Source: Patescibacteria group bacterium (GTDB lineage Bacteria; Patescibacteriota; Patescibacteriia; Buchananbacterales; UBA6539). From it: a stretch of DNA of 64,000 nt. The stretch's first letter is position 1; every line of letters begins with the position of its first letter. The notes under the pieces were generated by a model. The model saw only the letters and a list, made by a program, of their open reading frames with translations. It was not told the origin of the DNA and made no database searches. The position numbers were made by a program, and so were the translations under genes. Shown here piece by piece: positions 21,623 through 60,942 of this stretch. Location of the stretch: the NCBI GenBank assembly GCA_034003985.1, contig JAVEXP010000002.1, forward strand, positions 80,789-144,788, written 5' to 3'.

Positions 21623-22747
21623 TTACTGCCGGTAGAGTTTTTCGGTTTGGGCAATCATTTTATCAAGACTGAAATCAGTGTCAACATCCTGTTTGGCTTG
21701 CTTGCCTAAGGCCAGGGCCAAATTTTTATTGGTAAGCAAATTAGCAATAGCTATTGCTAAAGCTTCAGGGTCGGCTGGTTTAACCAGCAGGCCGTTTTTT
21801 TTATTTTGAATCATTTCCGGCACGCCGCCAACATTAGTAGTCACGATTGGTAATTTAGCTTTCATTGCTTCTAAAATGGCAAAAGGCAGCCCTTCTTTGA
21901 CCGACGAGCTGACATAGAGGTCAAAGGCTTTAAGATATTGAGAAGCCTTATCGACAACTCCCAAAAGTTTAAAATTATTTTCCAAATTGGCATCGACGAT
22001 TTCTTTTTGCAGCAGCGATTTAAGTTGGCCGTCGCCGATGATGACAAAAATTAAATTAGGATAATCTTTAATTATCGTTTTGGCCGCTTGAATCAAATAT
22101 AATAGTCCTTTGGTGGCATAAAAATTGGCCACTGTCCCGATTATTATCTCGTCTTGTGGCAAATCTAATTTTTTTCTGGCGGTTTCTTGTTCTAATAGAG
22201 GAAAGTCATTGATGCCGTTATGAATGACAATTAATTTTTCTTCGCTGCAAATTTTATTGGTAATTGCGGTTTGGTAATCGAATTGGGAAACACAGATTAG
22301 TTTATTTTTGTATTTGGCCGTAAATTTTTCGGCCCAAAGATATATTAATTTTTTCCAATCAGCCATTGGTTCGTTAAAGACAAAACCATGAACAGTATAG
22401 AATATTTTTTTTACCCCAGCATGCTTGGCCGCCAAGGCACCCAGAACTCCGGCCTTGCTGCTGTTTAAGTGGACGATATCTGGTTTTAACTCTTTAATTA
22501 GCTTTTTTATTTTCCAGTAGGCTCTGAAATCATTAAGTGGACTGATTTCCCTGACCAGATACTGTAATGGTCTGGTTTCAATGTTTTGTTGCTTTAACTT
22601 AGTTAGTAATCCGTCTTTGCCGCCACTGGCAACAATTGTTTTATAACCTTGTCCTGTCAGGCCGGTTGCTAAATAAAAAATATAGCGCTGGGCGCCACCG
22701 AATTCTGATTGGGTAATTAGGTATAAAATTTTGCTTGGTTGAGCCAT
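21623..22747 (-). CDS. Glycosyltransferase family 4 (GT-B, retaining)
   Basis: 374 aa; C-terminal Glycos_transf_1 motif SSSVKEGLPFAILEAMKAKLPIVTTNVGGVPEMI (E-x7-E). Confidence 0.8.
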   Translation of the reverse strand: MAQPSKILYLITQSEFGGAQRYIFYLATGLTGQGYKTIVASGGKDGLLTKLKQQNIETRPLQYLVREISPLNDFRAYWKIKKLIKELKPDIVHLNSSKAGVLGALAAKHAGVKKIFYTVHGFVFNEPMADWKKLIYLWAEKFTAKYKNKLICVSQFDYQTAITNKICSEEKLIVIHNGINDFPLLEQETARKKLDLPQDEIIIGTVANFYATKGLLYLIQAAKTIIKDYPNLIFVIIGDGQLKSLLQKEIVDANLENNFKLLGVVDKASQYLKAFDLYVSSSVKEGLPFAILEAMKAKLPIVTTNVGGVPEMIQNKKNGLLVKPADPEALAIAIANLLTNKNLALALGKQAKQDVDTDFSLDKMIAQTEKLYRQ

Positions 22748-22853
22748 AAATTGGTGGATAAATTGTGGTTTATTTGGCTTGACTGAAAGCCGAATTTATA
22801 TAATAATAATAAAGTATTCTTTGTTAATAATCAAGGTTCAATTTAGCTAAACT

Positions 22854-23807
22854 ATGAAGATTTTAGTGACCGGCGGCGCCGGTTTTATTGGCGCTCATGT
22901 CGCCGGTAAATTAATCGCTCGGGGAGACGAAGTTGTCATTATCGACAACTTTAATTCATACTACGAGCCTCAGCTAAAACGCGGGCGACTGGATAATTTA
23001 GTCGGCCGTCAGGCCAAAGTCTATGAGATTGATTTAGCCGACGAAACTGGCGTTAGCCAGGTTTTTACTGATCATCGGTTTGACCAGATTTGCCACCTCG
23101 GCGCTCAGGCCGGAGTTCGCTATTCGCTTCAACATCCGCAAGAGTATATTAAATCTAATATTGTTGGTACTCATAATATTTTGGAAAACGCCAGACAGCA
23201 CAATGTAACGCAGATCGTTTTTGCTTCGTCTTCTTCAGTGTACGGTGCCAACACCAAAATTCCCTTTAGTGAGACCGATCCGGTTGACCGGCCAATCTCT
23301 CTTTACGCGGCCACTAAGAAGAGCAACGAATTGGAATTTTATGCCTATCATCATTTGTTTGGTATTGATGTCATTGGTTTGCGTTTCTTTACAGTTTATG
23401 GTCCTTGGGGCCGGCCGGATATGGCCTATTTTTCTTTTGCTCGAAAGATTCTGAAAGGTGAGCCAATTGATGTCTATAATAATGGCCAGATGAAGCGTGA
23501 TTTTACCTATATTGATGATATCGTCGCGGGCGTGCTGGCTGCTTTGGATAACTGTCACGGCTACGATATTTTTAATCTCGGCAATAATCAACCAGTAGCT
23601 TTGGAAGATTTTATTGATTTGTTGGAAACCAATTTGGGCTCAAAATCACAACGAAATTATTTGCCCCTGCAGGATGGTGATGTTGTCGAAACTTATGCCG
23701 ATATTACCAAGGCCAAGACTAAATTGAATTGGCAACCAACCACCGATATCGCCGAAGGTATTTCTCGATTTGTTGAGTGGTATAAAAATTATTATCAAAT
23801 ATCTTAA
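22854..23807 (+). CDS. NAD-dependent UDP-uronate 4-epimerase (Cap1J/TviC-like extended SDR)
   Basis: MKILVTGGAGFIGAHV Rossmann motif; YAATKKSNELEFYAYHHLFGIDVIGLRFFTVYGPWGRPDMAYFSF closely matches the UDP-glucuronate 4-epimerase consensus (YxxxK catalytic pair). Confidence 0.7.
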   Translation: MKILVTGGAGFIGAHVAGKLIARGDEVVIIDNFNSYYEPQLKRGRLDNLVGRQAKVYEIDLADETGVSQVFTDHRFDQICHLGAQAGVRYSLQHPQEYIKSNIVGTHNILENARQHNVTQIVFASSSSVYGANTKIPFSETDPVDRPISLYAATKKSNELEFYAYHHLFGIDVIGLRFFTVYGPWGRPDMAYFSFARKILKGEPIDVYNNGQMKRDFTYIDDIVAGVLAALDNCHGYDIFNLGNNQPVALEDFIDLLETNLGSKSQRNYLPLQDGDVVETYADITKAKTKLNWQPTTDIAEGISRFVEWYKNYYQIS

Positions 23808-23810
23808 ATT

Positions 23811-25064
23811 ATGAAAGAAAAAATTTGTGTGGTTGGACTAGGTTATGTTGGTTTGCCCTTGGCTTGTTTGCTGTCAAAACATTTTTCCGTCAGCGGATTT
23901 GATATCAGCGAGCGTAAAATAAAAGATTTGCAAAATGGCATTGATGAAACGGGGGAGATTGATAATTTAAAAAAATATCAGCTTGAGTATTCGGCCAACC
24001 CATCAATTATTAGCCAAGCCAATTTTATTATTGTTGCCGTGCCAACGCCGATTACCGAAGATCTGAAGCCGGATCTAACGCCGCTGGAAAGCGCTTCGGA
24101 AATTGTTGGTAAGAATTTGCAAGCCGGCTCAGTTGTCGTTTATGAAAGCACGGTTTATCCCGGTTGTACCCGGGAAGTCTGCTTGCCAATTTTGGAACAA
24201 CGATCCGGGCTGAAATTTGGTACGGATTTTCAGCTTGGTTATTCGCCCGAACGGGTTAATCCCGGCGACCGGGTTCATACTATTGAAACCATCACTAAAA
24301 TAATTTCGGCCAGCGATCCCCAGACTTTGGCCAGGCTTAAGGCGGTTTATGGCCAAATTACTCAGGTGCATGAAGCTCAGACTATTGAAGTGGCCGAGGC
24401 CGCCAAGGTGATTGAAAATGTTCAGCGTAGCCTTAATATCGCCTTAATGAATGAACTCTCGTTGATTTTTGACAAGCTGGGCATCAATACCAAAGATGTG
24501 ATTGAGGCCGCTGCCACCAAATGGAATTTTCATAAATATTCACCGGGCTTGGTTGGCGGGCATTGTATCGGCGTTGACCCTTATTATTTGACCTACAAAG
24601 CTCAGCAGGAAGGTTATGAGCCAAAGATTATTTTATCCGGCCAGGAAGTAAATGAATCAATGGCCGGTCTGGTCGCTCAAAAATTTGCCGGCAAAATCAA
24701 TGTCTTGGTGTTGGGCATTACTTTCAAGGAGAATGTGCCGGATTCGCGCAATACCAAGGCACTTAATGTGATGTCGCGGTTGGCCGAGCAGGGAAGTAAA
24801 ATTTATTGGCATGATCCAGTTTTTACCGCCAAGCATCAGCCGCAGGCTTTTTCCGCCTATCCTTATTTGCCGTCCTTAGCCGGATCACCAGTCAAGTTTG
24901 ATGGTATTTTACTTTTCAGTCCCCATCAAATTTTTGGCAGTGCCGATTATGACCTGGCTAAATTGAAAGAAATTTGTAATGACCAGGCGTTAATTTTTGA
25001 TGTGAAGGGATTTTACAATCAGACCGAAGTAGAAAATTTAGGATTTAAATATTTAACTTTGTAA
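23811..25064 (+). CDS. UDP-sugar 6-dehydrogenase (Ugd/TviB/WbpA family nucleotide-sugar dehydrogenase)
   Basis: N-terminal VVGLGYVGLP NAD fold; catalytic Cys motif GGHCIGVDPYYL (TviB/WbpA-type); 417 aa. Confidence 0.8.
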   Translation: MKEKICVVGLGYVGLPLACLLSKHFSVSGFDISERKIKDLQNGIDETGEIDNLKKYQLEYSANPSIISQANFIIVAVPTPITEDLKPDLTPLESASEIVGKNLQAGSVVVYESTVYPGCTREVCLPILEQRSGLKFGTDFQLGYSPERVNPGDRVHTIETITKIISASDPQTLARLKAVYGQITQVHEAQTIEVAEAAKVIENVQRSLNIALMNELSLIFDKLGINTKDVIEAAATKWNFHKYSPGLVGGHCIGVDPYYLTYKAQQEGYEPKIILSGQEVNESMAGLVAQKFAGKINVLVLGITFKENVPDSRNTKALNVMSRLAEQGSKIYWHDPVFTAKHQPQAFSAYPYLPSLAGSPVKFDGILLFSPHQIFGSADYDLAKLKEICNDQALIFDVKGFYNQTEVENLGFKYLTL

Positions 25065-26182
25065 TGAAAGTCTTAATTGTTTCATTGGCATATTTGCCTT
25101 TTATTGGCGGCGCTGAGTTGGCCGTCAAAGAAATTACCGATCGTTTGCCCGAAATCGACTTTGATATGATTACGGTAAACTTGGATGGGCAACAACCAAA
25201 AAATCAGCAGGTTGGCAATGTTAATATTCACCGGTTGGGCCGAGGAAAGATTTCCAAGTATTTATTTCCCTGGACTGGTTTTAAATTGGCGACCAAACTG
25301 CACCAAGAAAAAAAGTATGATGCTGTTTGGGCGATTATGGCCAATCAGGCTGGATTGGTGGCTTTGCGGTTAAAAAACAAATTTCCCCAAATCAAATATT
25401 TGTTGACTTTGCAAGAAGGGGACTCATTAAAGCGGATCTGGAGCCGGACTTTTTTAATCCGTCCGCTTTACCGTCGAATTTATCGCCGCGCTGACTACAT
25501 CCAATCAATTAGCAGCTATCTATCCAATCGGGCTGTTCAGTACGGTTATCGCGGTAAATCAAGTATCGTGCCTAACGGCGTTGATTTGGAAAAATTTAAG
25601 ACCGATATTGATTCAGCCCAGCTTGATGAATTGAGAACTAAATTGAATCTTACTTCAGCCGATAAAATCGTGGTTACTGCTTCACGCTTGGTTCACAAGA
25701 ATGGTATTGATATTTTGATCAAATCCGCCCGTAATCTGCCACTCAAAATTTTAATTTTAGGCCAAGGTGAGTTGCAGCTTAAACTGGAGGCGTTGGCCCA
25801 GGAATTGGGTGTTAAAAATAAAATTTTATTTTTGGGCCACATCGGTCAGCCTGATTTGCCAAAATATTTGAAAATTGCCGATGTTTTTGTCCGGCCGTCG
25901 CGGTCCGAGGGTTTGGGTTCGGCTTTTCTGGAAGCCATGGCTGCTGGCCTGCCGGTGATTGGCACTAAAGTTGGTGGCATCCCTGATATTATCACCGAAG
26001 GCCAAACCGGTTTATTCTGCGAAGTCGACAATCCCAAAGATTTGGAAAATAAGATCAAATTATTACTGACGGATAATGATTTGCGTTTGCGCTTAATTGA
26101 CAACGGCAAGAAATTGGCAGTCAATAAATATGATTGGCAATTGGTTACCAGTCAAATGAGAGACATTTTTAATTCTTTATGA
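25064..26182 (+). CDS. Glycosyltransferase family 4
   Basis: RSEGLGSAFLEAMAAGLPVIGTKVGGIPDII motif; start overlaps the previous stop (translational coupling). Confidence 0.8.
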   Translation: MKVLIVSLAYLPFIGGAELAVKEITDRLPEIDFDMITVNLDGQQPKNQQVGNVNIHRLGRGKISKYLFPWTGFKLATKLHQEKKYDAVWAIMANQAGLVALRLKNKFPQIKYLLTLQEGDSLKRIWSRTFLIRPLYRRIYRRADYIQSISSYLSNRAVQYGYRGKSSIVPNGVDLEKFKTDIDSAQLDELRTKLNLTSADKIVVTASRLVHKNGIDILIKSARNLPLKILILGQGELQLKLEALAQELGVKNKILFLGHIGQPDLPKYLKIADVFVRPSRSEGLGSAFLEAMAAGLPVIGTKVGGIPDIITEGQTGLFCEVDNPKDLENKIKLLLTDNDLRLRLIDNGKKLAVNKYDWQLVTSQMRDIFNSL

Positions 26183-27285
26183 AATTAGTTATTGCCGCTG
26201 AAATTTTTCCGCCTGATATCGGCGGTCCGGCTACTTACAGCCAGCGTTTAGCCCAAGCCTTGATTGCTCGTGGCTGGCAGGTTGAATTAATTTGTTATAG
26301 TGATGCCAGACATCAAAACGATGAACCTTATATTCATCGCATAATTAGGAGCAAATTTAAGCCGCTTCATTATTTTAATTATTACCGTCAGCTTAAAACC
26401 CTGGCCAAAGCGGCTGATGTGATTTATGCCATGGGTCCGGTTGGCTCCGGCCAGCCAGCTGGCAAAGTTGCCAAAGAATTAAAAAAGAAATTAGTGATCA
26501 AGGTGGTGGGTGATTATGCCTGGGAAAGCGCCAGAAATTCCGGACAAACCAAGCTTTCAATTGACGATTTCCAAACCAAGGAATTTGCCGGCAAGATCGG
26601 ACTGCTACAAAAAACTGAACGCTTAGTTTGCCAAGCCGCGGATAAGGTGATTACTCCCAGTCAATATTTAAAACATATCGTCAAGGCCTGGGGGGTTGCC
26701 GAAAATAAAATCGAAGTCGTTTATAATTCTTTTGAGATTAATACCGCTGCTTCATCATCAATTGATACTAAAAATTTAATCTCAGCTGGGCGCTTGGTTC
26801 CTTGGAAAGGTTTTGAAACTTTGATTAAGCTGATGCCAGAATTGGATCCAGCTTTTAAATTGACGATTTTTGGACAAGGTCCAGATTATGATAATTTATT
26901 TTCGTTGGTCAATAAATTAAGTTTGGCTGATCGGGTAGAACTGGTCGGTCAAGTTACCAGTCAAGAATTGGTGTCCGAAATGTCAAAAGGAATTTTTATT
27001 TTAAATACTGGTTATGAAGGTTTATCTCATACCGTCTTGGAAGCGATGGCCGCATCCTCGCCAGTGATCACCACCAGAATTGGCGGTAATCCTGAATTAA
27101 TTACCGATGGAGTCAATGGTTTGTTGGTTGAATATAATAACCAAGAGCAATTAAGAGAGGCAATTATTAAACTTGATACTAATCCGGAGTTGGTTAAGCA
27201 GTTTGTGGCTGAGTCAAAAAATATTCTGGAAAAATTTAGCGAACAAAAAATGATTGAAGAGACTATTAGAGTTTTGCAATCATGA
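26179..27285 (+). CDS. Glycosyltransferase family 4
   Basis: GYEGLSHTVLEAMAASSPVITTRIGGNPELI; ATGA overlap with the upstream gene. Confidence 0.8.
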   Translation: MKLVIAAEIFPPDIGGPATYSQRLAQALIARGWQVELICYSDARHQNDEPYIHRIIRSKFKPLHYFNYYRQLKTLAKAADVIYAMGPVGSGQPAGKVAKELKKKLVIKVVGDYAWESARNSGQTKLSIDDFQTKEFAGKIGLLQKTERLVCQAADKVITPSQYLKHIVKAWGVAENKIEVVYNSFEINTAASSSIDTKNLISAGRLVPWKGFETLIKLMPELDPAFKLTIFGQGPDYDNLFSLVNKLSLADRVELVGQVTSQELVSEMSKGIFILNTGYEGLSHTVLEAMAASSPVITTRIGGNPELITDGVNGLLVEYNNQEQLREAIIKLDTNPELVKQFVAESKNILEKFSEQKMIEETIRVLQS

Positions 27286-28361
27286 AAGTTTTAATGATTT
27301 CAATTGACAGGGGATTACTTGGCCAAAATCAGTTGGGCGATGTTATCCAACGCCACGCGGAATATGGCAAACATATTGACCAGCTGGATGTGGTTGTTTT
27401 TTCTCAAGATGGTTTTTCAAAATTTCCTATTTCATCGAATGTTACGGCTTATCCCACTAACTCCAAATCAAAATGGCGTTATTTTTTTGATGCCAAAAAA
27501 CTTGGCACCAAATTATTCCAGAATAATCGTTATGACTTGGTAACTAGTCAGGATCCGTTTGTGACCGGCATGGTTGCTTGCCGCCTTAAGAAGAAATTTA
27601 AATCTAAATTTTTAGTCCATTTTCACGGCGATTTTTGGGGGAATATTAATTGGCTGAAAGAGTCAAAATTTAATTGGTCGCTTTGGTTAGTTTCCCGCCG
27701 AGTGGTTTCTCAAGCTGACGCCATCCGGGTAATGAGCGAAGGCCAAAAATCAAAATTGGGAAAACACCAGGTTAAGGCTAAAATTATCTCTACTCCGGTT
27801 GATTTAGCCAAATATCAAATTTCAACCTCTCGGATTTCAAGCCGAAAAATGGTTTTGCATGTTGGCCGTTATGACAAAGCCAAAGATTTTTCCACTTTAG
27901 CTAAAGCTTTTAAGTTAGTTAGGGATAAAATATCTAATGCGGATTTTGTCCAATGTGGTGCCGGTCCTCAAGTGAAAGAATATTTTAGCAGTTTGCCGTT
28001 AGTTGCTTATCCCAAGATTAGCCAATCTGCTTTGATTGATTTTTATCATCAATCTTTGGTGGTAGTCTTATCTTCTACTTCTGAAAGTTTTGGTAAAGTG
28101 TTGGTGGAAGCAAATGCTTGTGGTAAGCCGGTAGTCGCCACGGCCACGACCGGTGCCAAAGAAATTGTTCAAGATGGCTACAATGGTTATTTGGTGCCTA
28201 TTGGTGATGCCGAAAAACTGGCCGAAAAAATTATTGAATTATTAAATGATCCGGTCAAAGCCAAAGAGTTGGGAGAGAACGGCAGAAAATTAGTTCAAGA
28301 AAAATTTGGTGACAATACTAACAAGATTATTAATTTTTGGAGGGAAATAGTTAATGGTTAA
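27282..28361 (+). CDS. Glycosyltransferase family 4
   Basis: TSESFGKVLVEANACGKPVVATATTGAKEIV; ATGA overlap. Confidence 0.75.
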   Translation: MKVLMISIDRGLLGQNQLGDVIQRHAEYGKHIDQLDVVVFSQDGFSKFPISSNVTAYPTNSKSKWRYFFDAKKLGTKLFQNNRYDLVTSQDPFVTGMVACRLKKKFKSKFLVHFHGDFWGNINWLKESKFNWSLWLVSRRVVSQADAIRVMSEGQKSKLGKHQVKAKIISTPVDLAKYQISTSRISSRKMVLHVGRYDKAKDFSTLAKAFKLVRDKISNADFVQCGAGPQVKEYFSSLPLVAYPKISQSALIDFYHQSLVVVLSSTSESFGKVLVEANACGKPVVATATTGAKEIVQDGYNGYLVPIGDAEKLAEKIIELLNDPVKAKELGENGRKLVQEKFGDNTNKIINFWREIVNG

Positions 28362-29879: not shown

Positions 29880-29881
29880 TT

Positions 29882-30793: not shown

Positions 30794-30795
30794 TT

Positions 30796-31935: not shown

Positions 31936-31936
31936 G

Positions 31937-34029: not shown

Positions 34030-34033
34030 CAAT

Positions 34034-36832: not shown

Positions 36833-36869
36833 TTATTTACAACATCAATAGGCCTCAATTTTTAAGAAT

Positions 36870-38535: not shown

Positions 38536-38544
38536 AATTAAAAT

Positions 38545-39834: not shown

Positions 39835-39836
39835 TC

Positions 39837-42011: not shown

Positions 42012-42012
42012 T

Positions 42013-48231: not shown

Positions 48232-48233
48232 TT

Positions 48234-49019: not shown

Positions 49020-49029
49020 CTTAATAATT

Positions 49030-52602: not shown

Positions 52603-52611
52603 TGCTATAAT
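52603..52611 (+). promoter_or_regulatory. Possible extended -10 promoter element for the O-antigen-ligase-like gene
   Basis: TGcTATAAT ~33 nt upstream of ATG 52644 in the divergent intergenic region; no good -35. Confidence 0.3.
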
Positions 52612-52643
52612 TAATTTGCTTTATAATAACATTTTTTTAACTT

Positions 52644-55097
52644 ATGGAAGCCAGGCTATCCAATTATCTCCTTAAATTTTTGAAAATTGGGGTATTTGTG
52701 ACTCTATTTTTACCCTTAGTGATGAACAGCCATTTTTTCTTTCCCTTTATTGTTTTTAAAAATGTTTTATTCCATATTGCTGTTGAAGTGATGTTTGTGG
52801 CCTATTTATTTTTGGCCAGCATTAACCCTCGTTTTCGTCCCAGATTAGACAAACTCACCATTGCATTGGTGGCTTTTTTTGTCATTTATGTTATGGCGGG
52901 AATATTTGGTATTGGGATTTACAGTAGCTTCTGGGGTAATTACGAAAGAATGTCGGGAATTTTTCACATGTTTCACTTGGTCTTGTATTTTTTGGTGGTG
53001 GCCAATGTTTTTAAAGTCAAAGAAGATTGGCATGCCTTTTTTACTTTTTCAATTTTTGCCAGTTTGCTGATGAGTTTTTTGGGTCTGGCCCAATGGTTGA
53101 AAATTCCTTTTTTGCTGGAATCTTCCGGCGGCAGCCGGTTATCCGGAACAGTTGGTAATGCCACTTTTTTGGCCGCTTATCTGATTTTTAATTTATTTTT
53201 TATTTTATATTTTTGGGCCAAAGAGGAAAGATTCAATTTGAAGCTTTTCGCCGTCAGTTTTTTAAGTTTTGACATTTTTTTGGTTCTGAGTTCAATTTTA
53301 AACAAGCTATTTATTACCAGCGATTGGGGACTTTTAAATATTTTTAAAATTCCAATTTTGATTGAAGGTTTTGATTACCCTAAAATTTGGGTGGCTTATT
53401 TGGTATTTCAGGCTTTAATTCTGGCGGTTTGGCTGCTGCGAACCAAGATCAACGCCGTTCGAGTGTTGTTGTCGGCCATTCTGTTGTTGGATTTTTTCAT
53501 TTTTTTCAATACCCAGACCCGCGGCGCAATCATTGGTTTTGTTTTAGGGGTTGGATTTTTGGCCGTTGCCGGATTGGTCTTTAGCCGCGACAAAAAAATT
53601 AAAGCCGCTGTTGCCGGATTTTTATTATTGGCGGTGATTTCACCCTTTATTCTATTGGCCGCCAAAGATACCAGTTTTATCCAAAACAACGGCACTTTAA
53701 GCCGACTGGCCAATATTTCCAAATCGGATTTGACTACCGAGTCGCGCTTGTTGACCTGGCAGGCCAGTTGGCGAGGTTGGTCGGAAAACTCCAAATCTTT
53801 TTTGATTGGTTATGGTCCGGAAAATTATTACTATGCTTTTAACAAGTATTTCCCGACGGCTATTTACAAAGATGCCGGTTCACGGATTTGGTTTGATCGG
53901 GCCCATAATATTATTTTTGATATTGGAGTTACCACTGGCATTATCGGTTTGGTGAGCTATCTGAGCATTTTGGCTTTGGCCGCTTATTATCTGGTTGCCG
54001 CGTACCGTCAAGTTAAGGAAATTAGTTCCAGCTGGTTATTTGTCGGCTTGCTGATTGCCTATTTCATTCAGAATTTTTTTGTTTTTGATACGATTAATAC
54101 CGAGATCCCGTTCTTTTTGTTTTTAGGTTTTATTGTTTTTCAATATTTTGAGGCGTACTCATCTCAAAATTCGTCTGCCACGAATTATCGGGAGATAAAT
54201 TATATTTATCTTGCCACTTTGGCGGTGGTTTTATTGTTTGGCGTTTTGGCTGTCAATGTTCGGGTGCTTAAATCCAATAATTACATTTTTAAAGCCTTGA
54301 CTGGCAACGGCGATGTCCAAATCGCTTTTGATTATTTCAAACAGGCCATTGATCAATCTCTGACCGGTCGGTTTGAGGCTCGGCAACAAATCGCTGATTT
54401 TGCCAATCGGCTGTTGACCAACCAGAGCGTTAATAATAACAAAAAATCAGAGATTATTAGTTTTGCCGGTTTGGAACTGAAAAAAAGCATTGACGAAGAA
54501 CCACTGAATGTTCGCCATTACATTTTTTTGGCCAATTTTCGGAATTCCACGGCCGCGGCTAATATTCAAGCGGTTCAAGAGGCAGCTGATTTAATGTCTC
54601 AAGCCATTGAATTAAGTCCCAATAGACCTCATGTCTATTCCGAGTTGGCCAAGGCTGAAGTTTTGCTCGGTAATTTTGAAGCAGGGGAGAAGTGGTTTAA
54701 ACAGTCCGCCGCGCTGGCACCTTGGGTAATTGATGTTCACTGGAATTTGTTGACCGTTTATATCATGTTTGAAAAGTATGATTTGGCTGATGAATACATG
54801 GAGTACATGAAACAGGAGCTTGACTGGCAGCCTGGCGTTCAGGACTATGGCCGGTTGGTTGATTTGTACGCCCGCGTTAAAAATTACAACCGGATGCTTG
54901 AAGCTCAACTTTTAAAGATTGAAATTGAATCAACGGCCGATAACTATGCTCAGCTGGCCGCCATTCATGCCAAGCTTGGTCAAAACGAACAAGCCCGCCA
55001 GGCTACTCAAAGGGCTGTTGAAATAAACCCAGAATTTTCCGGTCAGGCCCAACAATTTTTACAACTTCTGGATCAGGGGGAATTATTAGATAAATAA
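52644..55097 (+). CDS. O-antigen ligase family (Wzy_C) polytopic membrane protein fused to a C-terminal TPR-repeat domain (WaaL/PglL/WsaB-like)
   Basis: 817 aa; >10 TM; large loop with FDRAHNIIFDIGVTTGIIGLVSY (Wzy_C AHN...G..G motif with the conserved His); C-terminal ~250 aa of TPR-like repeats. Confidence 0.75.
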   Translation: MEARLSNYLLKFLKIGVFVTLFLPLVMNSHFFFPFIVFKNVLFHIAVEVMFVAYLFLASINPRFRPRLDKLTIALVAFFVIYVMAGIFGIGIYSSFWGNYERMSGIFHMFHLVLYFLVVANVFKVKEDWHAFFTFSIFASLLMSFLGLAQWLKIPFLLESSGGSRLSGTVGNATFLAAYLIFNLFFILYFWAKEERFNLKLFAVSFLSFDIFLVLSSILNKLFITSDWGLLNIFKIPILIEGFDYPKIWVAYLVFQALILAVWLLRTKINAVRVLLSAILLLDFFIFFNTQTRGAIIGFVLGVGFLAVAGLVFSRDKKIKAAVAGFLLLAVISPFILLAAKDTSFIQNNGTLSRLANISKSDLTTESRLLTWQASWRGWSENSKSFLIGYGPENYYYAFNKYFPTAIYKDAGSRIWFDRAHNIIFDIGVTTGIIGLVSYLSILALAAYYLVAAYRQVKEISSSWLFVGLLIAYFIQNFFVFDTINTEIPFFLFLGFIVFQYFEAYSSQNSSATNYREINYIYLATLAVVLLFGVLAVNVRVLKSNNYIFKALTGNGDVQIAFDYFKQAIDQSLTGRFEARQQIADFANRLLTNQSVNNNKKSEIISFAGLELKKSIDEEPLNVRHYIFLANFRNSTAAANIQAVQEAADLMSQAIELSPNRPHVYSELAKAEVLLGNFEAGEKWFKQSAALAPWVIDVHWNLLTVYIMFEKYDLADEYMEYMKQELDWQPGVQDYGRLVDLYARVKNYNRMLEAQLLKIEIESTADNYAQLAAIHAKLGQNEQARQATQRAVEINPEFSGQAQQFLQLLDQGELLDK

Positions 55098-55098
55098 T

Positions 55099-57363
55099 TT
55101 GATGAGACTGAAAAGAAATTTAATCCCAAGCGTTTTTTTGGTGTTGGCTTTGAGCCTGTCGGCTTGTGTTTTTTATCCGCCGCTATTGGCTCGCGCCTCT
55201 CAGTTGCCTCTTGGCCAGTATCAGCCAGGTGAATTTTTAGTCAGATTTAAAAGTAATCCCAAGGTTTATCGTTTTAAGACAACCCCTGATTTGGACATTG
55301 AGGCTGCCATTGCTAAATATGGCCGTTGGGACTCAGTTGAATTCATTGAACCAAACTATTTGTATCAGGCCGCTGCTTTCCCTAATGATCCAGATTATTC
55401 TTTACAGTGGTACCTGACTGCGGTCAATGCTAAGGAGGCCTGGTCAAAAGAATTGCTTTTGCGCCAGACCAACCCTAATCTCAAAGATCCGATTATTGCC
55501 GTCTTGGATACCGGAGTTTACCTGAATCACCCTGATTTAAAAGATCAGATTTGGACCAACCCCAAAGAAATCGCCAATGATGGGATTGACAATGACCGCA
55601 ACGGTTACATTGATGATGTCTACGGCTGGGATTTTCTTGATGATGATTCTGACCCGAATCCTTCATTCAGCGCAAATTATGATGCCGATGCCGTTAACCA
55701 CGGTACGATTGTTGCCGGTATTGCCGCGGCGGCTAATAACAACTTTCAAGGAATTGCCGGTGTCAGTTGGTCAGGCAAGATTATGCCGTTGCGGGTTTTG
55801 GATAGCCACGGCGGCGGGGAAGTCTACTCGGTAATCCGAGCGGTTGACTATGCCATCGCCAACGGGGCTGATGTTATCAACATGAGTTTTGTCGGCGATG
55901 ATTTTAGCCAGGCGTTGTTTGATGCCGTGCTTAAGGCTTATAACCATAATGTTATTGTCGTGGCGGCGGCCGGCAACACTAATCCCGGCGTCAATGGCGT
56001 TGATTTGGATGTTGCCAAATCATACCCGGTTTGTTTTCAGGGACCCCAGGGTGAAAATATGATTATTGGGGTCGCGTCGATCGGCAAAAATTTGGTTAAG
56101 TCGCCGTTTTCCAATTATGGCAGCTGTATTGATTTAGTTGCTCCGGGCGAAAGTTTTTATGCCACCCAGGTCAAACAATCCGGCATTTCCGGGTTTGAGA
56201 ATTATTACAACGGCTATTGGTCCGGTACTTCCTTGTCAACGCCGATTGTTAGTGCCGTTTTGGCTACCGTTAAGTCACTTAACCCTTTGGCCACTATTGA
56301 CCAAATTCAGTCGGTGGTCTTGAAGGCCACTAAAGATGTTTATTCTTATAACAGTATTTATCGCGATAAATTAGGTTATGGTCTAGTTGATTTCTATAAA
56401 GCCATTAATACTTCGTTGGCCAAAACCAATCCGGTTTCTCAAACCAATCAGAATCATTATATTTTGGCGGGGCTTGGTTACGGCTCTTTTCCGCAATTAA
56501 AGCTCCTTGCTTCAGACGATGGTCGGGAGTTCAAATCATTTTTTGCTTACAGTCCTTATTTTAACGGCGCTGTCAGGGTGGCATCCGGTGATTTGAATGG
56601 CGATGGTCAGCCCGAAGTGATTACCGGCACCGGCATCGGTGGTGGCCCGCATGTCAGAATTTTTGATATCAATGGCAAATTGATCTCGCAATTTTTTGCC
56701 TACGCCAAAGATTTTCGCGGTGGGGTTAATATTGCGACTGCCGATTTGGATAATGACGGCAAAGCCGAAATCATTACCGGCCCGGGTCCAGGTATTGAGC
56801 CGGAAGTCAAAGTGTTTGATTTGAATGGTAATCAGAAGCTTGGTTTCCTGGCCTATGGTCAAAATTTTTTGGGTGGGGTTAAAGTTGCCGCTGGTGATGT
56901 TGACGGTGACGGTCGTGACAACATTGTTGTTGGCGCTGGGAACGGCGGCGGTCCGCATGTTCGGATTTTTGAATATAACGGTAAATTACTGTCGCAATTT
57001 TTTGCTTACAACAGTGATTTCCATGGTGGGGTGAATGTTGCCGTTGGTGATTTCCATGGCGACGGTAAAGCGGAAATTGTCGTCAGTATTGAAAAAGATT
57101 CTTTGCCCACCGTCAGAGTGTTTAATTATCAGGGCATTAAACTTTCCGATTTTTTCGCTTTTGAATTTGATTTTCTAAAAGGTGTGGAGGTCGCAGTTGG
57201 CGATGTTACCGGCGACGGCCTGGCCGAAATCATCGCCGGAAAAGCTCAAGGTGGAGCGCCCTTAATTAAAATTTTTAATATTAACGGTAAGTTGAAATCC
57301 GAATTTTTTGCCCACAGTAAGGGTTATACCGGTGGCGTTAGAACCGCGGTTATTAGTTTTTAG
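55099..57363 (+). CDS. Secreted subtilisin-like S8 serine protease with C-terminal FG-GAP beta-propeller repeats
   Basis: Signal peptide; catalytic triad motifs AVLDTGV (Asp), HGTIVAGIAAA (His), GTSLSTPIVSA (Ser); six ~47-aa repeats of G-D-x-x-G-D-G-x-x-E-I-x-x-G ... G-G-P-x-V-x-x-F. Confidence 0.8.
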   Translation: MMRLKRNLIPSVFLVLALSLSACVFYPPLLARASQLPLGQYQPGEFLVRFKSNPKVYRFKTTPDLDIEAAIAKYGRWDSVEFIEPNYLYQAAAFPNDPDYSLQWYLTAVNAKEAWSKELLLRQTNPNLKDPIIAVLDTGVYLNHPDLKDQIWTNPKEIANDGIDNDRNGYIDDVYGWDFLDDDSDPNPSFSANYDADAVNHGTIVAGIAAAANNNFQGIAGVSWSGKIMPLRVLDSHGGGEVYSVIRAVDYAIANGADVINMSFVGDDFSQALFDAVLKAYNHNVIVVAAAGNTNPGVNGVDLDVAKSYPVCFQGPQGENMIIGVASIGKNLVKSPFSNYGSCIDLVAPGESFYATQVKQSGISGFENYYNGYWSGTSLSTPIVSAVLATVKSLNPLATIDQIQSVVLKATKDVYSYNSIYRDKLGYGLVDFYKAINTSLAKTNPVSQTNQNHYILAGLGYGSFPQLKLLASDDGREFKSFFAYSPYFNGAVRVASGDLNGDGQPEVITGTGIGGGPHVRIFDINGKLISQFFAYAKDFRGGVNIATADLDNDGKAEIITGPGPGIEPEVKVFDLNGNQKLGFLAYGQNFLGGVKVAAGDVDGDGRDNIVVGAGNGGGPHVRIFEYNGKLLSQFFAYNSDFHGGVNVAVGDFHGDGKAEIVVSIEKDSLPTVRVFNYQGIKLSDFFAFEFDFLKGVEVAVGDVTGDGLAEIIAGKAQGGAPLIKIFNINGKLKSEFFAHSKGYTGGVRTAVISF
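56509..57360 (+). repeat. Tandem coding repeats (FG-GAP-like modules, about six copies of ~140 bp)
   Basis: DNA-level similarity between units, e.g. ggtggtggcccgcatgtcagaatttttgatatcaatggcaaattgatctcgcaattttttgcctac vs ggcggcggtccgcatgttcggatttttgaatataacggtaaattactgtcgcaattttttgcttac. Confidence 0.6.
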
Positions 57364-57365
57364 CT

Positions 57366-57815
57366 ATGTTTTTTGATTTTATTAAGCGTCAAGTTTTCAT
57401 CCGGCAGTTTGTTAAATTTTGTGTTGTCGGCGGTTTGGCCGCCGTTATTAATTTTATTTTACTTTATGCTTTAACGGAATGGTTTGGGATCTGGTATGTG
57501 ATTTCTTCGGCCTTCGGCGGGGTGATTTCGGCAATTTGGAATTTTTTGGCCAATAAGTTTTGGACTTTTCGCAACCGCGACCGCGGGCGTCAGGCTTTGG
57601 AGCAGATGTTTAAGTTCATCGTGGTAATCGGCAGCGGGGTAGTGGTTAATACTTTACTGGTCTATTTGTTCACCGATTTCGGCGGACTTGATTATCGTTG
57701 GTCTTGGGTTTTGGCCACTGGCGTTGTTACTTTTTGGAATTTTGGGTTTAACCGGTTTTGGACCTTTGGCGCCAAATCGGGGATTGATCCAAAGTTGCTT
57801 TCCGGTTCTTTTTAG
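57366..57815 (+). CDS. GtrA-family small membrane protein (polyprenyl-phosphate-sugar flippase family)
   Basis: 149 aa, 4 TM, FVKFCVVGGLAAVINFILLYAL...WNFLANKFWTF pattern. Confidence 0.75.
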   Translation: MFFDFIKRQVFIRQFVKFCVVGGLAAVINFILLYALTEWFGIWYVISSAFGGVISAIWNFLANKFWTFRNRDRGRQALEQMFKFIVVIGSGVVVNTLLVYLFTDFGGLDYRWSWVLATGVVTFWNFGFNRFWTFGAKSGIDPKLLSGSF

Positions 57816-57860
57816 GTTATAATATATTAAAGTTTTGGGATTAAAATATAATTTAAAGTT

Positions 57861-58886
57861 ATGCCAAAAGTTGCCATTTTCGAGAAAAAAAATATTTTGG
57901 TAACCGGTGGGGCGGGGTTTATCGGTTCACATTTATGCGATGAGTTGGTTAAGGACAATAAGGTTATTTGCGTTGACAATTTTATTTCCGGGGATGAGGC
58001 CAATATCGATTATCTGCTGCGTAATCCAGATTTTAAGTTTATTAAACACGACATTAATGAACCGTTGGGCTTGGAGGCTTTGCCGGAATTGGAAGACTTT
58101 CGGATTAAGTTTCAGGGCCTTCAGGAGATTTATCATTTAGCTTGTCCAACCTCGCCTAAGGATTTCGAAAAAACCAGAATTCAGACCGCCTGGGCCAATT
58201 CGGTCGGTGTGAAGAACGCTTTGGATTTAGCCGTCAAATATAAGGCTAAATTTTTGCTTAGCTCCTCTTCGGTGGTTTACGGTCCGCGTGAGGCCAAAAA
58301 TAAATTTTTTTCGGAAAACTACACCGGGTTGGTTGACCAATTGAGTCCCCGTGCCTGTTATGATGAAGGTAAGCGCTTTGCCGAAACTTTGACTGAGACT
58401 TACGGCGAAGTCTATAATCTTGATACTAAAATCGTCAGGATTTTTAGGACCTACGGTCCGCGGATGAAATTGAATATCGGTGAGATGCTGCCCGATTTTG
58501 TTTCCGATGCTTTGGACAATAAAGATTTGGTGATTTATGGCGACCAGGATTTTTCTTCCTCTTTCTGCCATGTTTCCGATATCATTGAAGGAATGATTAA
58601 AGTCATGAAGAGCGGAGAAAGCGGTCCTTTGAATTTGGGTAGTGATTTGGAATACAAATTGGTGGATGTCGCCCAGAAAGTAATTGACATGACTGGCTCA
58701 AAATCAAAAATTATTTTTAAAAAACCCTTGCTGTTTATGTCTCCTTTGGGACTGCCTGACATCAGCCAGATTAAAGAGCGCCTGGGTTGGTTTCCGGTAG
58801 TTTTGCTAGAAGATGGCCTTCAGGGCGCGATTGATTACTTCAAGGCTCATAAGTCAATTTTGGGTCCGACCAGCCGGTTTAAATAA
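57861..58886 (+). CDS. UDP-glucuronate decarboxylase (UDP-xylose synthase, UXS family)
   Basis: ILVTGGAGFIGSHL; IYHLACPTSP; SPRACYDEGKRFAETL; RIFRTYGPRM, each matching UXS signature blocks (IYHLASPASP / PRACYDEGKR / RIFNTFGPRM) as recalled. Confidence 0.8.
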   Translation: MPKVAIFEKKNILVTGGAGFIGSHLCDELVKDNKVICVDNFISGDEANIDYLLRNPDFKFIKHDINEPLGLEALPELEDFRIKFQGLQEIYHLACPTSPKDFEKTRIQTAWANSVGVKNALDLAVKYKAKFLLSSSSVVYGPREAKNKFFSENYTGLVDQLSPRACYDEGKRFAETLTETYGEVYNLDTKIVRIFRTYGPRMKLNIGEMLPDFVSDALDNKDLVIYGDQDFSSSFCHVSDIIEGMIKVMKSGESGPLNLGSDLEYKLVDVAQKVIDMTGSKSKIIFKKPLLFMSPLGLPDISQIKERLGWFPVVLLEDGLQGAIDYFKAHKSILGPTSRFK

Positions 58887-58893
58887 TTTAGTT

Positions 58894-59571
58894 ATGAAGA
58901 CCGCGGTAGTAATTCCAGCTTACAATGAGTCCAAAATAATCAGTCAGACTATTGCCGGCCTCAGAGCCCAAAATCAGGTTAGTGAAGTGATTGTGGTTGA
59001 TGACGGCTCTGCCGACAATACCGGCCCGGCGGCTCGTGCTGCCGGTGCGGTGGTCTTGCGTCATCTTGTTAATCGCGGTCAGGGTGCAGCTTTACAAACC
59101 GGCATTAACTTTGCCTTAAAGCATGGCGCCAAAATCATTATTACCTTCGATGCCGACGGTCAGCATGACGCTAAAGAGATTGTTAAGATGATTGAACCGA
59201 TAATTTCGGGCCAATCGGCAGTAGTCTTGGGTTCTCGATTTTTGGTTAAGCAAAATCAAGTTCCTTTCAGTCGTTTGGCCGTTTTGAAACTGGCGATAAT
59301 ATTTACCAGGATTTATACTGGTTTAACAGTCACCGATGTCCATAACGGCTTTCGGGCATTTTCGGCCAAAGCCGCCAGCCAGCTTGATCTTCGGCAAGAC
59401 GGCATGGCTCATGCTTCCGAAATTCTTGAACAAATTCGGAAGCATCGCTTGGCTTTCTGCGAGGTGCCAGTCACTATTGCTTATACTGATTATTCTTTGC
59501 ATAAAGGCCAGCGCTTAAGCAACTCCTTTCGCATCGTTTTTGAATTAATTTTGGGGCGTTTAACCAAATGA
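58894..59571 (+). CDS. GT2 polyprenyl-phosphate glycosyltransferase (DPM1/GtrB/ArnC-like)
   Basis: MKTAVVIPAYNES...VIVVDDGSADNT (DxD region), 225 aa from ATG 58894; the ORF-track N-terminal extension overlapping uxs rejected. Confidence 0.75.
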   Translation: MKTAVVIPAYNESKIISQTIAGLRAQNQVSEVIVVDDGSADNTGPAARAAGAVVLRHLVNRGQGAALQTGINFALKHGAKIIITFDADGQHDAKEIVKMIEPIISGQSAVVLGSRFLVKQNQVPFSRLAVLKLAIIFTRIYTGLTVTDVHNGFRAFSAKAASQLDLRQDGMAHASEILEQIRKHRLAFCEVPVTIAYTDYSLHKGQRLSNSFRIVFELILGRLTK

Positions 59572-59900
59572 TTATCAAAATTTTAATCATCGTTTTTATC
59601 CTATTTGCCGTTTATCGTACGGTTGCCAGGTTCCGTCAGCGCGATATCGCTTTTCGGGAATTATTGATTTGGCTAATATTTTGGTTGCTGGTTGGTTTGG
59701 TGACGATTTTCCCCCAAAAGACCGACAGCATCGCCCAGTGGCTGGGTGTAAGTCGTGGTGCTGATTTGTTGGTTTATATTTCAATTATCGTATTGTTTTT
59801 TGCCGTTTTTAAGATTATCGTCAAACAGGAAAAAATTGAGCGCGATATCACCAAAATTGTCCGGGCCAAAGCCTTGGCCGAAAAACCAGATCATGAGTAG
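59568..59900 (+). CDS. Small 3-TM membrane protein (DUF2304-like), commonly paired with GT2 enzymes
   Basis: 110 aa; MIIKILIIVFILFAVYRTV...; overlaps neighbours by 4-8 nt. Confidence 0.5.
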   Translation: MIIKILIIVFILFAVYRTVARFRQRDIAFRELLIWLIFWLLVGLVTIFPQKTDSIAQWLGVSRGADLLVYISIIVLFFAVFKIIVKQEKIERDITKIVRAKALAEKPDHE

Positions 59901-60942
59901 TAAGAAAGTTTTAATAGTCATTGCAGTCCATAACGGCACCGATTTCCTCGGTGACTGTTTGTCTAGTCTTGCCAAAATCAATTACCCACAGGAAGACTTA
60001 ACTATTTTAGCTGTCGATGACTGCTCAACTGACAATTCGGTTGAATATCTCAAAACGACTTGGCCGCAGGTTGAGCTAATTATCAATCAGACCAATCTTG
60101 GTTTTGCCGTCAGTAATAATTTGGGATTTCAATACGCCCTTGACCATAATTTTGCCTATGTTTATATGTTGAATCAGGATACTGTCGTGGAGCCTGATTT
60201 TTTGTTTAAGGCAGTAGCTCTGGCTGAAAGTGATTCCCGTATCGGTGCGGTTCAGTCAAAACTGATGCTGTTTGCCGACCCAAACAAGATTAACAGTATC
60301 GGCAACGAGATCCACTTTTTGGGTTTTGCTTTCGCCGGCGGTTATCAATCCGCCGACCAGAATTTAGCGGCCAAGGAAATCACTTATCCTTCGGGCGCCG
60401 CGGTATTGTTGAAAACTTCAGCTTTAAAACAAATCGGTTTTTTGAATCCCGATTTTTTTATGTACCACGAAGATACCGACTTGGGCTGGCGGCTGTGGCT
60501 GGCGGGCTGGCGCGTGATGCTATCTCCCGATTCCGTGGTCTATCACAAGTATGAGTTTTCCCGCAGTATCAAAAAATATTATTACATGGAGCGCAATCGT
60601 TATTTGATTATTTTTCAAAATTATAAAATCGCCACTTTAATTTTACTTGCCCCAGCTTTGGCGGTTATGGACACGGCCATGATTTTTTATTCTTTCCTCA
60701 ACGGTTGGCATCGTCAGGAATTGCGTGCCATTAATTATTTGTTCAGTCCTTTGGCCTGGCAAAAAATCTATCATACTCGCAGAGCCGTTCAGGCTAGTCG
60801 CTGCGTCAAAGATCGCGAAATTGTCAAACGGTTTGTTGGCCGGATTGATTTTCAGGATATCCAAAATCCCTTATTGGAATATTTGGTCAACCCGGTATTT
60901 GATTTTTATTGGAAGATTATCCGGCATATTATTTTTTGGTAA
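59893..60942 (+). CDS. GT2 glycosyltransferase (rhamnosyl/WbbL-like GT-A)
   Basis: Start at MSSKKVLIVIAVHNGTD (ATG 59893); LAVDDCSTDNS, YMLNQDTVV (DxD region), C-terminal amphipathic/TM segment. Confidence 0.75.
   Translation: MSSKKVLIVIAVHNGTDFLGDCLSSLAKINYPQEDLTILAVDDCSTDNSVEYLKTTWPQVELIINQTNLGFAVSNNLGFQYALDHNFAYVYMLNQDTVVEPDFLFKAVALAESDSRIGAVQSKLMLFADPNKINSIGNEIHFLGFAFAGGYQSADQNLAAKEITYPSGAAVLLKTSALKQIGFLNPDFFMYHEDTDLGWRLWLAGWRVMLSPDSVVYHKYEFSRSIKKYYYMERNRYLIIFQNYKIATLILLAPALAVMDTAMIFYSFLNGWHRQELRAINYLFSPLAWQKIYHTRRAVQASRCVKDREIVKRFVGRIDFQDIQNPLLEYLVNPVFDFYWKIIRHIIFW

Follow-up and report, generated by a model that had tools for sequence, protein, structure and literature searches.

A conserved surface-coat superlocus of Parcubacteria with two candidate routes for glycosylating a large secreted protein

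We analysed 64,000 nucleotides of DNA from a Patescibacteria group bacterium (assembly GCA_034003985.1, contig JAVEXP010000002.1, positions 80,789 to 144,788; hereafter the window, with positions counted from its first letter). All window open reading frames of at least 100 aa were scanned against Pfam, and NCBIfam equivalog cut-offs were applied for selected families. The window holds a surface-coat superlocus of about 50 kb, at approximately 12.0–60.9 kb, that is real and conserved in Parcubacteria. It encodes a large secreted protein, here called BigSurf, two GT-C glycosyltransferases, a ligase of the Wzy_C family fused to a tetratricopeptide repeat (TPR) domain (Wzy_C-TPR), and genes for sugar supply, glycan assembly and export (Table 1).

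The original prediction, made from the sequence of the window, had described a glycosylation region starting at position 21623. The functional unit begins earlier, at about 12007, with an ECF sigma factor, a DUF5667 protein and BigSurf at its head. Pfam placed each gene named in that prediction at its claimed coordinate, including the two upstream GT-C enzymes (PMT_2 at 17563 and 19973), the seven GT4 glycosyltransferases (21623 and 50082 on the minus strand; 25064, 26179, 27282, 28839 and 30796 on the plus strand), the ABC exporter at 32236, which is a fused TMD-NBD protein, and the ligase fusion at 52644, which matched both Wzy_C and TPR. The S8 subtilase at 55099 and the phospho-amine/LicD branch at 42013–45922 had been overlooked.

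Most of these genes lie in three dense co-directional blocks (22854–31935, 32236–50085 and 52644–60942) with intergenic gaps of at most 45 nt, and a divergent minus-strand pair, a GT4 and the priming transferase, completes them.

Table 1. Features of the superlocus, in window coordinates. TM, transmembrane helix.
Feature	Position	Strand	Basis or remark
ECF sigma factor	12007-12573	+	Pfam; conserved head of surface-protein module
DUF5667 membrane protein, putative anti-sigma	12566-13474	+	Pfam
BigSurf, secreted 1232-aa protein, candidate S-layer/surface glycoprotein acceptor	13742-17440	+	
GC-rich 11-bp hairpin, possible terminator/attenuator before GT-C genes	17493-17518	.	Consensus scan only
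GT-C enzyme 1 (PMT_2; ArnT-PMT family), ~12 TM	17563-19263	+	PMT_2 77.9 bits
TPR232, small membrane-anchored TPR protein, candidate acceptor-recognition partner	19268-19966	+	Pfam TPR; one N-terminal TM
GT-C enzyme 2 (PMT_2)	19973-21622	+	PMT_2 95.5 bits
GT4, conserved member of BigSurf module	21623-22747	-	Pfam
SDR 4-epimerase-like enzyme	22854-23807	+	Conserved in syntenic genomes
TviB/Cap5O-like NDP-N-acetylhexosamine 6-dehydrogenase	23811-25064	+	Conserved in syntenic genomes
Five GT4 (25064, 26179, 27282, 28839, 30796), NUDIX hydrolase (28354), 303-aa protein (29882)	25064-31935	+	Pfam
Fused TMD-NBD ABC exporter, candidate lipid-linked-glycan flippase	32236-34029	+	Pfam ABC_membrane and ABC_tran
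Gene block for CMP-pseudaminic acid or a derivative	34034-42011	+	Pfam, NCBIfam
Phospho-amine decoration branch, four genes	42013-45922	+	
518-aa protein (45915-47471), methyltransferase, DUF5672 protein (48234-49019), SDR	45915-50085	+	Weak assignments
GT4, with priming transferase divergent from ligase	50082-51113	-	Pfam
Priming transferase: Bac_transf and CoA_binding_3 polyprenyl-phosphate glycosylphosphotransferase, 463 aa	51130-52521	-	Bac_transf 223 bits
Wzy_C-TPR ligase, 817 aa: WaaL-fold core (15 TM) and C-terminal TPR (~558-817)	52644-55097	+	
S8 subtilase with FG-GAP beta-propeller, probable lipoprotein signal	55099-57363	+	Pfam; starts 1 nt after ligase stop
GtrA	57366	+	Pfam
UXS-like decarboxylase (SDR)	57861	+	Closest characterised: human UXS1
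PpgS/GacI-like GT2	58894	+	Pfam, NCBIfam
DUF2304 protein, GacJ-like activator	59568	+	Pfam 86 bits; overlaps GT2 stop codon
Membrane GT2 (module end 60942)	59893	+	Pfam

On the ligase side, close relatives always showed the order priming transferase (minus strand), Wzy_C-TPR, S8/FG-GAP subtilase, GtrA, UXS-like enzyme, GT2, DUF2304 and GT2, and the order of the module from GtrA to the last GT2 was kept in loci L002–L004 and in further loci. Beyond the priming transferase the gene sets were wholly unlike: NeuB, an aldehyde dehydrogenase and a transketolase in L002, asparagine synthases and radical-SAM enzymes in L003, and an ABC exporter with CotH/NosD in L004. The left part was collinear with the window in two of these relatives, lying 31–35 kb ahead of the ligase as it does in the window, with pilus genes, HtrA, ECF sigma, DUF5667, a protein of about 1240 aa, GT-C, TPR, GT-C, GT4 (minus strand), epimerase, TviB-like dehydrogenase and three GT4 in that order. 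The superlocus thus consists of conserved flanks around a variable glycan middle, a layout typical of surface-glycan loci. A chance grouping of the genes was ruled out by synteny in three genomes, since the same arrangement recurs there.

BigSurf carries a signal peptide; the mature protein is acidic (pI 4.35) and the composition is rich in Thr (12.7%), Ser (10.9%; 23.6% for Ser+Thr) and Ala (10.6%), with two Cys. No family in Pfam or NCBIfam matched it, and its 393 homologues, all from Parcubacteria, are all annotated as hypothetical; in some of them a PG_binding_1 domain stands in for the N-terminal region. In an AlphaFold2 (AF2) model with a confidence score (pLDDT) of 86, an alpha/beta domain at the N-terminus is accompanied by about nine domains of beta-sandwich type. 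The C-terminus carries conserved aromatic residues. Both composition and architecture are S-layer-like, and BigSurf is likely to be a major surface or S-layer protein. The pair encoding the ECF sigma factor and the DUF5667 protein lies directly 5′ of BigSurf homologues in many loci. We also noted a 267-nt leader (13475–13741) with a strong Shine-Dalgarno sequence before BigSurf; together with the predicted hairpin behind the gene, it would fit high BigSurf expression and less read-through into the GT-C genes.

The two GT-C enzymes that follow BigSurf are 33% identical to each other and have an acidic motif after TM1, in the first outside loop (TDD in GT-C 1 and TDE in GT-C 2). Between them lies TPR232, which is collinear in alignment with the TPR domain of the ligase. 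The slot of GT-C 2 is occupied by Wzy_C-TPR paralogues in other genomes, and homologues of the GT4 behind it (33–52% identity) keep the same relative position in other loci.

The ligase matched Pfam Wzy_C at 62.1 bits against a gathering cut-off of 31.7, as did 6 out of 6 diverse family members tested, and its AF2 model reached a pLDDT of 90.7 and a predicted TM-score (pTM) of 0.88. Across 55 aligned homologues, 32–59% identical to the window ligase, residues R165, R293, R368, D418 and H421 were invariant, and the alignment also held an H-N-x9-G-xx-G pattern. A profile of the membrane domain had one match in the PDB, the Cupriavidus WaaL ligase 7TPG (E 1.7e-4), with R293 paired to R191, R368 to R265 and H421 to the His of EHAHN. 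Using hhalign, a six-sequence profile aligned weakly with E. coli WaaL, bringing only RAH421N onto HLH338N, and gave no meaningful alignment with E. coli WbbH; both comparisons were too weak to discriminate. In E. coli WaaL, R215, R288 and H338 are reported to be important for function, and the equivalent R224, R298 and H349 are conserved in PglL (PMC3643930). Our mapping of catalytic residues relies on the alignment and on that study. The ligase has the WaaL fold and the R/R/H catalytic signature.

Positive-inside analysis of the modelled helices predicted 11 TM, an outside catalytic loop (340–422), three more TM, a short cytoplasmic linker, an extra TM (520–540) and an outside TPR domain (558–817). 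Because the extra TM follows the cytoplasmic linker in this topology, the TPR domain is predicted to lie on the same side as the catalytic loop. The ligase is 52–59% identical across genomes whose adjoining glycan genes differ completely; conservation beside such variable genes argues for relaxed glycan specificity rather than for a repeat-unit polymerase. We accordingly ruled out a Wzy polymerase, for which no Wzx or polysaccharide co-polymerase (PCP) partner was present in the window.

The S8 subtilase scored 149 bits against the mycosin-like model of NCBIfam, with an intact D137/H201/S378 triad, an LSAC lipobox and a C-terminal FG-GAP propeller. All members of the orthologous clade had it next to the ligase, as did 19 out of 84 ligase loci overall, and it may serve in the maturation or anchoring of a surface protein. 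A bolder idea, which we hold to be a long shot, is that ligase and subtilase form one machine in which the protease cleaves BigSurf or another secreted protein and the protein held by the TPR domain is joined covalently to a lipid- or wall-linked glycan. Such joining would be anchoring of a sortase- or GPI-like kind instead of side-chain decoration, in a lineage that has lost SLH/CsaB anchoring.

To place the ligase in context, we compared the neighbourhoods of 84 ligase-anchored genome loci. Two contexts recurred: one with priming transferase, ligase, S8 subtilase, GtrA, UXS, GT2, DUF2304 and GT2, and another with ECF sigma, DUF5667, BigSurf, a GT-C or Wzy_C-TPR, a TPR protein and again a GT-C or Wzy_C-TPR, followed by the minus-strand GT4. 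The priming transferase adjoined Wzy_C-TPR in 34 of the 84 loci. An independent collection of metagenome contigs, searched with BigSurf as the anchor, yielded 45 loci in which the contig continued for at least 4 kb beyond the gene; a GT-C or Wzy_C-TPR lay within 6 kb 3′ of BigSurf in 30 of them, and a homologue of the small TPR protein lay 3′ of BigSurf in 38. A neighbour-joining tree of 104 Wzy_C-TPR sequences, calculated without support values, placed the window ligase in a clade of 13 copies linked to the priming transferase and S8 subtilase, the sister of which consisted of six BigSurf-adjacent copies. Thus, GT-C and Wzy_C-TPR are interchangeable beside BigSurf and its TPR partner, and the ligase is associated with a candidate surface-protein acceptor both through the syntenic superlocus that it shares with BigSurf and through paralogues located directly 3′ of BigSurf. 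The interchange of positions is the strongest argument that both transferase types act on BigSurf or on something assembled with it.

The module downstream of the subtilase has the makings of a polyprenyl-phosphate-monosaccharide route. The original prediction had named GtrA, a DPM1/GtrB-like GT2 and a DUF2304 partner; Pfam identified all three. The GT2 is PpgS/GacI-like: its best NCBIfam match was PpgS, at 213.7 bits along the entire length against an equivalog cut-off of 370. The GacJ family corresponds to DUF2304, and GacJ and Rv3632 stimulate their GT2 partners (bioRxiv 10.1101/180810). The expected UDP-xylose enzyme at 57861 was borne out to the extent that human UXS1 was its closest relative (241 bits, E 2e-70; next family about 105 bits), with no NCBIfam model passed. 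Because the adjacent sugar-nucleotide enzyme is UXS-like, the loaded sugar may be a pentose. No source of UDP-glucuronic acid (UDP-GlcA) for this enzyme is evident in the window, because the dehydrogenase at 23811 is TviB-like and not Ugd-like. This dehydrogenase scored 360 bits as TviB (UDP-GlcNAc 6-dehydrogenase) and 119–139 bits against UDP-glucose dehydrogenase models, and its nearest solved relatives were Cap5O and UDP-ManNAcA dehydrogenase. The supply of UDP-GlcA and UDP-galacturonic acid proposed for 23811 and 22854 is therefore doubtful; an N-acetylhexosamine (HexNAc)-uronic acid is the more likely product by sequence, and the epimerase at 22854 would fit a 4-epimerase that acts on a uronic-acid nucleotide sugar.

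For assembly of a lipid-linked glycan, the predicted WbaP-like priming transferase proved to be a member of the WbaP/WcaJ family that fails the WbaP cut-off (231 bits against 403) and that of WcaJ (320 against 411) and falls instead into the EPS_sugtrans subfamily (396 against 296). The genes from 25064 to 31935 are separated by at most 3 nt, and the first three of their GT4 are kept in syntenic genomes. The soluble 303-aa protein among them (29882–30793) had no sequence match in Pfam, NCBIfam or the PDB; its VIDSDLFWF stretch includes a DSD motif that recalls the DxD sites of GT-A enzymes, and the protein may be a transferase that has escaped recognition. The ABC exporter scored below cut-off against the HepA family (352 bits), MsbA (309) and PglK (233), and a 44% identical homologue adjoins the priming transferase in L004. 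A hydrophobicity scan of 21.6–61 kb found no additional polytopic membrane protein, so that neither Wzx nor a separate Wzy is present, in agreement with the earlier statement that the region holds no Wzx/Wzy polymerase pair; no MOP/Wzx-like or PCP protein was present in the window.

The block at 34034–42011, predicted to make CMP-pseudaminic acid, comprises PseB, PseC, PseF, a GFO/IDH/MocA oxidoreductase, a second CTP_transf_3 protein, a class-III aminotransferase (HemL-like), a DUF218 protein, PseI and a GNAT protein. Equivalog cut-offs were passed by PseB (446 over 408), PseC (439 over 424), PseF (286 over 206) and PseI (451 over 340). The GNAT protein scored weakly as PseH (47.6 against 93.1), PseG was not found in the block with Pfam or NCBIfam, and four extra enzymes lie between pseF and pseI (36870–40487). 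The core of the prediction thus stood, and the product is probably a modified pseudaminic acid, because PseG is missing, PseH is weak and four extra enzymes are present. The additional genes suggest a nonulosonate altered by oxidation, transamination or in some other way, or else a second CMP-sugar.

The next four genes encode a fusion of an NTP-transferase with a CobD-like PLP decarboxylase (42013), a SAM methyltransferase (43820), a SerK/SbnI-like kinase (44530) and a LicD phosphotransferase (45194). Their probable route would lead from serine through phosphoserine to phosphoethanolamine, possibly N-methylated towards phosphocholine, then to a CDP-form and onto the glycan; there is a precedent for decarboxylation of phosphoserine in Cj1436 (PMC12409886). 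The fusion belongs to an uncharacterised family with more than 5100 matches in bacteria and archaea, one homologue of which (P0249, 839 aa) has the methyltransferase fused on as well. Further downstream, the 518-aa protein at 45915 gave weak matches to Capsule_synth and to the family of BFO_1060, which we take to be a Tannerella locus tag; for that reason we consider the protein a candidate nonulosonate or Kdo-type transferase. The DUF5672 protein matched its family at 175 bits. Searches of PDB sequences gave no useful relative for the former and none for the latter.

The host matters for any assignment of the ligase. An identical protein is listed at NCBI as 'O-antigen ligase family protein' from a metagenome-assembled genome of a Patescibacteria group bacterium, and relatives of the ligase come from Ca. 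Buchananbacteria and other Parcubacteria. The source organism is an ultra-small Patescibacterium, not yet cultured, that stands near Ca. Buchananbacteria. In a scan of one genome per species, we found Wzy_C-TPR relatives at no fewer than 582 loci, nearly all labelled Patescibacteria, so that Wzy_C-TPR is a general feature of the lineage. Several loci with Parcubacteria-type synteny (L017, L020, L026, L031, L040, L079 and others) belong to bins whose titles read 'uncultured Gammaproteobacteria' or 'Candidatus Saccharibacteria'; such titles look like labelling errors made automatically and are no sign of a wider taxonomic range of the family. The candidate phyla radiation (CPR) has been placed within a monoderm clade that has, in addition, lost the SLH/CsaB anchoring system (bioRxiv 10.1101/2021.05.31.446380). 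Taxonomy, through the protein record, the Parcubacteria relatives and this report, thus supports the monoderm host that had been assumed.

We propose, with a probability of roughly 0.55, that the superlocus builds a complex glycan for attachment to BigSurf as the likely surface-protein acceptor, using two routes. In the en-bloc route, the WcaJ/WbaP-family transferase would prime undecaprenyl phosphate at the cytoplasmic face, and up to seven GT4 enzymes with accessory transferases would add a HexNAc-uronic acid, a pseudaminic acid derivative, methyl groups and a LicD-transferred phospho-amine. The fused ABC exporter would flip the undecaprenyl-diphosphate (Und-PP)-glycan, and Wzy_C-TPR would transfer it to Ser/Thr of BigSurf and possibly of other surface proteins, with the outward TPR domain holding the protein acceptor. 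In the monosaccharide route, the UXS-like enzyme would provide a UDP-pentose, the PpgS/GacI-like GT2, activated by DUF2304, would load the pentose onto polyprenyl phosphate, and GtrA would flip the product. The two PMT_2 GT-C enzymes, together with TPR232, would then add single sugars outside, on the same protein or on its glycan. The S8 subtilase perhaps matures the surface protein.

These steps keep the outline of the original prediction. Its two routes are upheld, given that a GT2 and DUF2304 of the GacI/GacJ or PpgS/Rv3632 type sit with GtrA and match the GT-C enzymes. So is its preference for an O-oligosaccharyltransferase over a lipopolysaccharide (LPS) ligase, in view of the outward TPR domain, as in WsfB (see below), the monoderm lineage and the lack of LPS genes in the window and the syntenic loci. 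The suggestion that both routes serve the same surface protein or wall polymer gains from the GT-C and ligase paralogues that directly follow BigSurf, an acceptor reached through genomic context.

Several points weigh against glycosylation of BigSurf by this ligase. In this genome the two genes are 35 kb apart, and their adjacency rests on paralogues in other genomes; the tree that connects the paralogues carries no support values. The motifs of PglL_A and PglL_B (Wzy_C_2) were absent from the ligase in Pfam searches even at E values up to 10, while PF11846 was present in a few distant homologues. TPR domains occur in polysaccharide-export machinery as well. Foldseek searches with the BigSurf model retrieved generic Ig-like arrays only, without a match to an S-layer protein, so that its S-layer identity is that of a candidate. 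Our computations show which genes are present, the folds of the proteins, the conservation of catalytic residues, the predicted topology, the synteny and the statistics of gene neighbourhoods; from them we infer every substrate, flipping step and acceptor as well as the role of the subtilase. Finally, S-layer and glycan genes should be linked just as much where the glycan serves as the wall polymer to which the protein is anchored.

That last point leads to an alternative in which Wzy_C-TPR polymerises a secondary wall or capsule-like glycan, or attaches it to an anchor of lipid or peptidoglycan, and BigSurf remains unglycosylated and binds the polymer through its N- or C-terminal domain, like the S-layers held by the secondary cell wall polymer (SCWP) in Bacillus or by PS-II in Clostridioides. 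We consider this rather unlikely and yet a serious possibility. Gene linkage between S-layers and their anchoring polymers is established knowledge in Firmicutes, the exchange for PG_binding_1 marks the N-terminal end of BigSurf homologues as a wall-binding module, and the aromatic residues conserved at the other end would suit the same role. Charged decorations such as uronic acid, pseudaminic acid and phospho-amine are typical of wall polymers, and the window contains no LCP ligase, a role that the Wzy_C protein could fill. A polymerase, however, should co-vary with its repeat unit, whereas this enzyme is conserved beside variable glycan genes, has neither Wzx nor a chain-length regulator in the window, and keeps the R/R/H ligase signature and the WaaL fold. 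It also swaps with PMT-family GT-C enzymes directly after BigSurf, beside a TPR protein, and its fusion architecture matches that of the predicted protein O-oligosaccharyltransferase WsfB.

The enzyme could instead be a PglL/TfpO-like ligase that acts chiefly on the type IV pilins of the 7.4–9.5 kb region, a reading that we judge improbable. Type IV pili are prominent in CPR bacteria. Synteny with the superlocus extends to a PilT-like ATPase and to a protein bearing an N-terminal methylation motif (8200–8688), and 21 out of 31 PglL homologues adjoin pilin genes (PMC3643930). Over 164 loci, by contrast, Wzy_C-TPR adjoined BigSurf or the priming transferase, pilins not being among the neighbourhood queries; in the three syntenic genomes, HtrA and the sigma pair separate BigSurf from the pilin genes, which are found about 5 kb 5′ of it, and the ligase lacks the PglL_A and Wzy_C_2 motifs. 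Such a model would still leave room for BigSurf, and pilins could be additional targets of the ligase. Taking the database name literally, as a WaaL that joins O-antigen to lipid A-core, is supported by that name and by WaaL being the closest solved structure, and we rejected this reading, as extremely improbable, on host type and architecture: the lineage is reported to be monoderm, and the extra TM and the TPR domain are absent from WaaL. Neither the 64-kb window nor the roughly 90 kb of sequence from syntenic relatives contained lipid A, Kdo, heptosyl or Lpt genes, and no LPS-core family was matched in the window scans, as had been predicted for core genes.

The superlocus represents a known kind of system, because its parts and logic are familiar from Firmicutes, Actinobacteria and Proteobacteria. 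The closest described counterparts are the slg loci of Paenibacillus alvei (WsfB, WsfP) and Geobacillus stearothermophilus (WsaA/WsaB, WsaP, Wzm/Wzt). WsaB and WsfB are predicted S-layer O-oligosaccharyltransferases with Wzy_C; WsfB has a C-terminal TPR domain, whereas WsaB has none and is preceded by the small TPR protein WsaA, and the loci carry a WbaP-type initiator and ABC export (PMC2943079). In common with our window they have a monoderm host, WbaP-family priming, cytoplasmic assembly on a lipid carrier, ABC-type export and a link to an S-layer gene (PMC2943079). Judged by published architecture, both TPR forms occur in the window, the fusion at 52644 being WsfB-like and the free TPR232 at 19268 WsaA-like. 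The differences are the phylum, a fused MsbA/PglK-type half-transporter in place of Wzm/Wzt, a BigSurf unrelated to SgsE or SpaA, and the additional subtilase, GtrA/GT2/DUF2304/GT-C route, pseudaminic acid and phospho-amine branches and ECF sigma module.

WaaL itself (Cupriavidus metallidurans 7TPG/7TPJ; E. coli) has Arg/Arg/His at the same positions, which implies an Und-PP-glycan donor; identity to WaaL is 18%, and the window ligase has three extra membrane helices in addition to the external TPR domain. A lipid A-core acceptor is not expected, because the lineage is reported to be monoderm and the window has no lipid A-core genes. PglL, TfpO, PglS and TfpM likewise have a Wzy_C core with an essential His, transfer glycans en bloc with relaxed specificity and are often encoded beside their acceptor (PMC3643930, PMC9829042); PglL_A/Wzy_C_2 is undetected in the window ligase, its likely acceptor is a large beta-sandwich protein and not a pilin, and its host is monoderm and not diderm. 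For the monosaccharide route, GacI/GacJ/GacK/GacL of Streptococcus, PpgS/Rv3632/Rv3779 of Mycobacterium and GtrA/GtrB/GtrV combine the same GT2 and DUF2304 with a small flippase and an outside GT-C. The window GT2, by contrast, falls below the PpgS cut-off (214 against 370) and has a UXS-like neighbour, and the GT-C enzymes lie 36 kb away, by BigSurf and with a TPR protein. Eukaryotic TMTC1-4/PMT enzymes offer an analogy: they unite a PMT-family GT-C with TPR repeats on the non-cytoplasmic side, use a polyprenyl-phosphate-monosaccharide donor and modify Ser/Thr of surface proteins rich in beta-sandwich domains. The TPR protein is a separate polypeptide in the window, and the likeness is one of Pfam family and analogy.

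The literature that we searched on CPR bacteria with O-antigen ligase or glycosylation described no protein-glycosylation system; to that extent, this is the first such system found laid out for CPR bacteria. Much of bacterial diversity belongs to the CPR/Patescibacteria, which live in attachment to other cells and whose surface chemistry is essentially unknown. The locus offers candidates in the form of a lineage-wide family of 'hypothetical' surface proteins with dedicated transferases. Its variable glycan region could set strain-specific recognition by hosts or phages, and O-oligosaccharyltransferases of relaxed specificity double as tools for making glycoconjugates. The features that stand out are the interchange of GT-C and Wzy_C-TPR, the invariable coupling to a catalytically intact S8 subtilase with a lipoprotein signal and the probable de novo phospho-amine branch (phosphoethanolamine or phosphocholine-like).

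Outside the superlocus, the pilus region at 5996–10299 encodes the PilT-like ATPase, small membrane proteins and lipoproteins, the pilin-like protein at 8200–8688 and a DUF5656 membrane protein, and it is syntenic in two other genomes. Rfam and tRNA scans of the window found nothing other than a tRNA-Pro (CGG) at 3318–3394 on the minus strand. The tRNA gene overlaps the start of a mechanically called open reading frame (3317–4054) without a family match; we consider this frame, or its start at the least, a probable artefact. At the right edge (62043–63950), a C5 cytosine DNA methyltransferase (263 bits) lies beside a 260-aa minus-strand open reading frame without assignment. With a GC content of 0.31, against about 0.40 elsewhere, this segment on the right border of the superlocus probably represents a restriction-modification module that was acquired.

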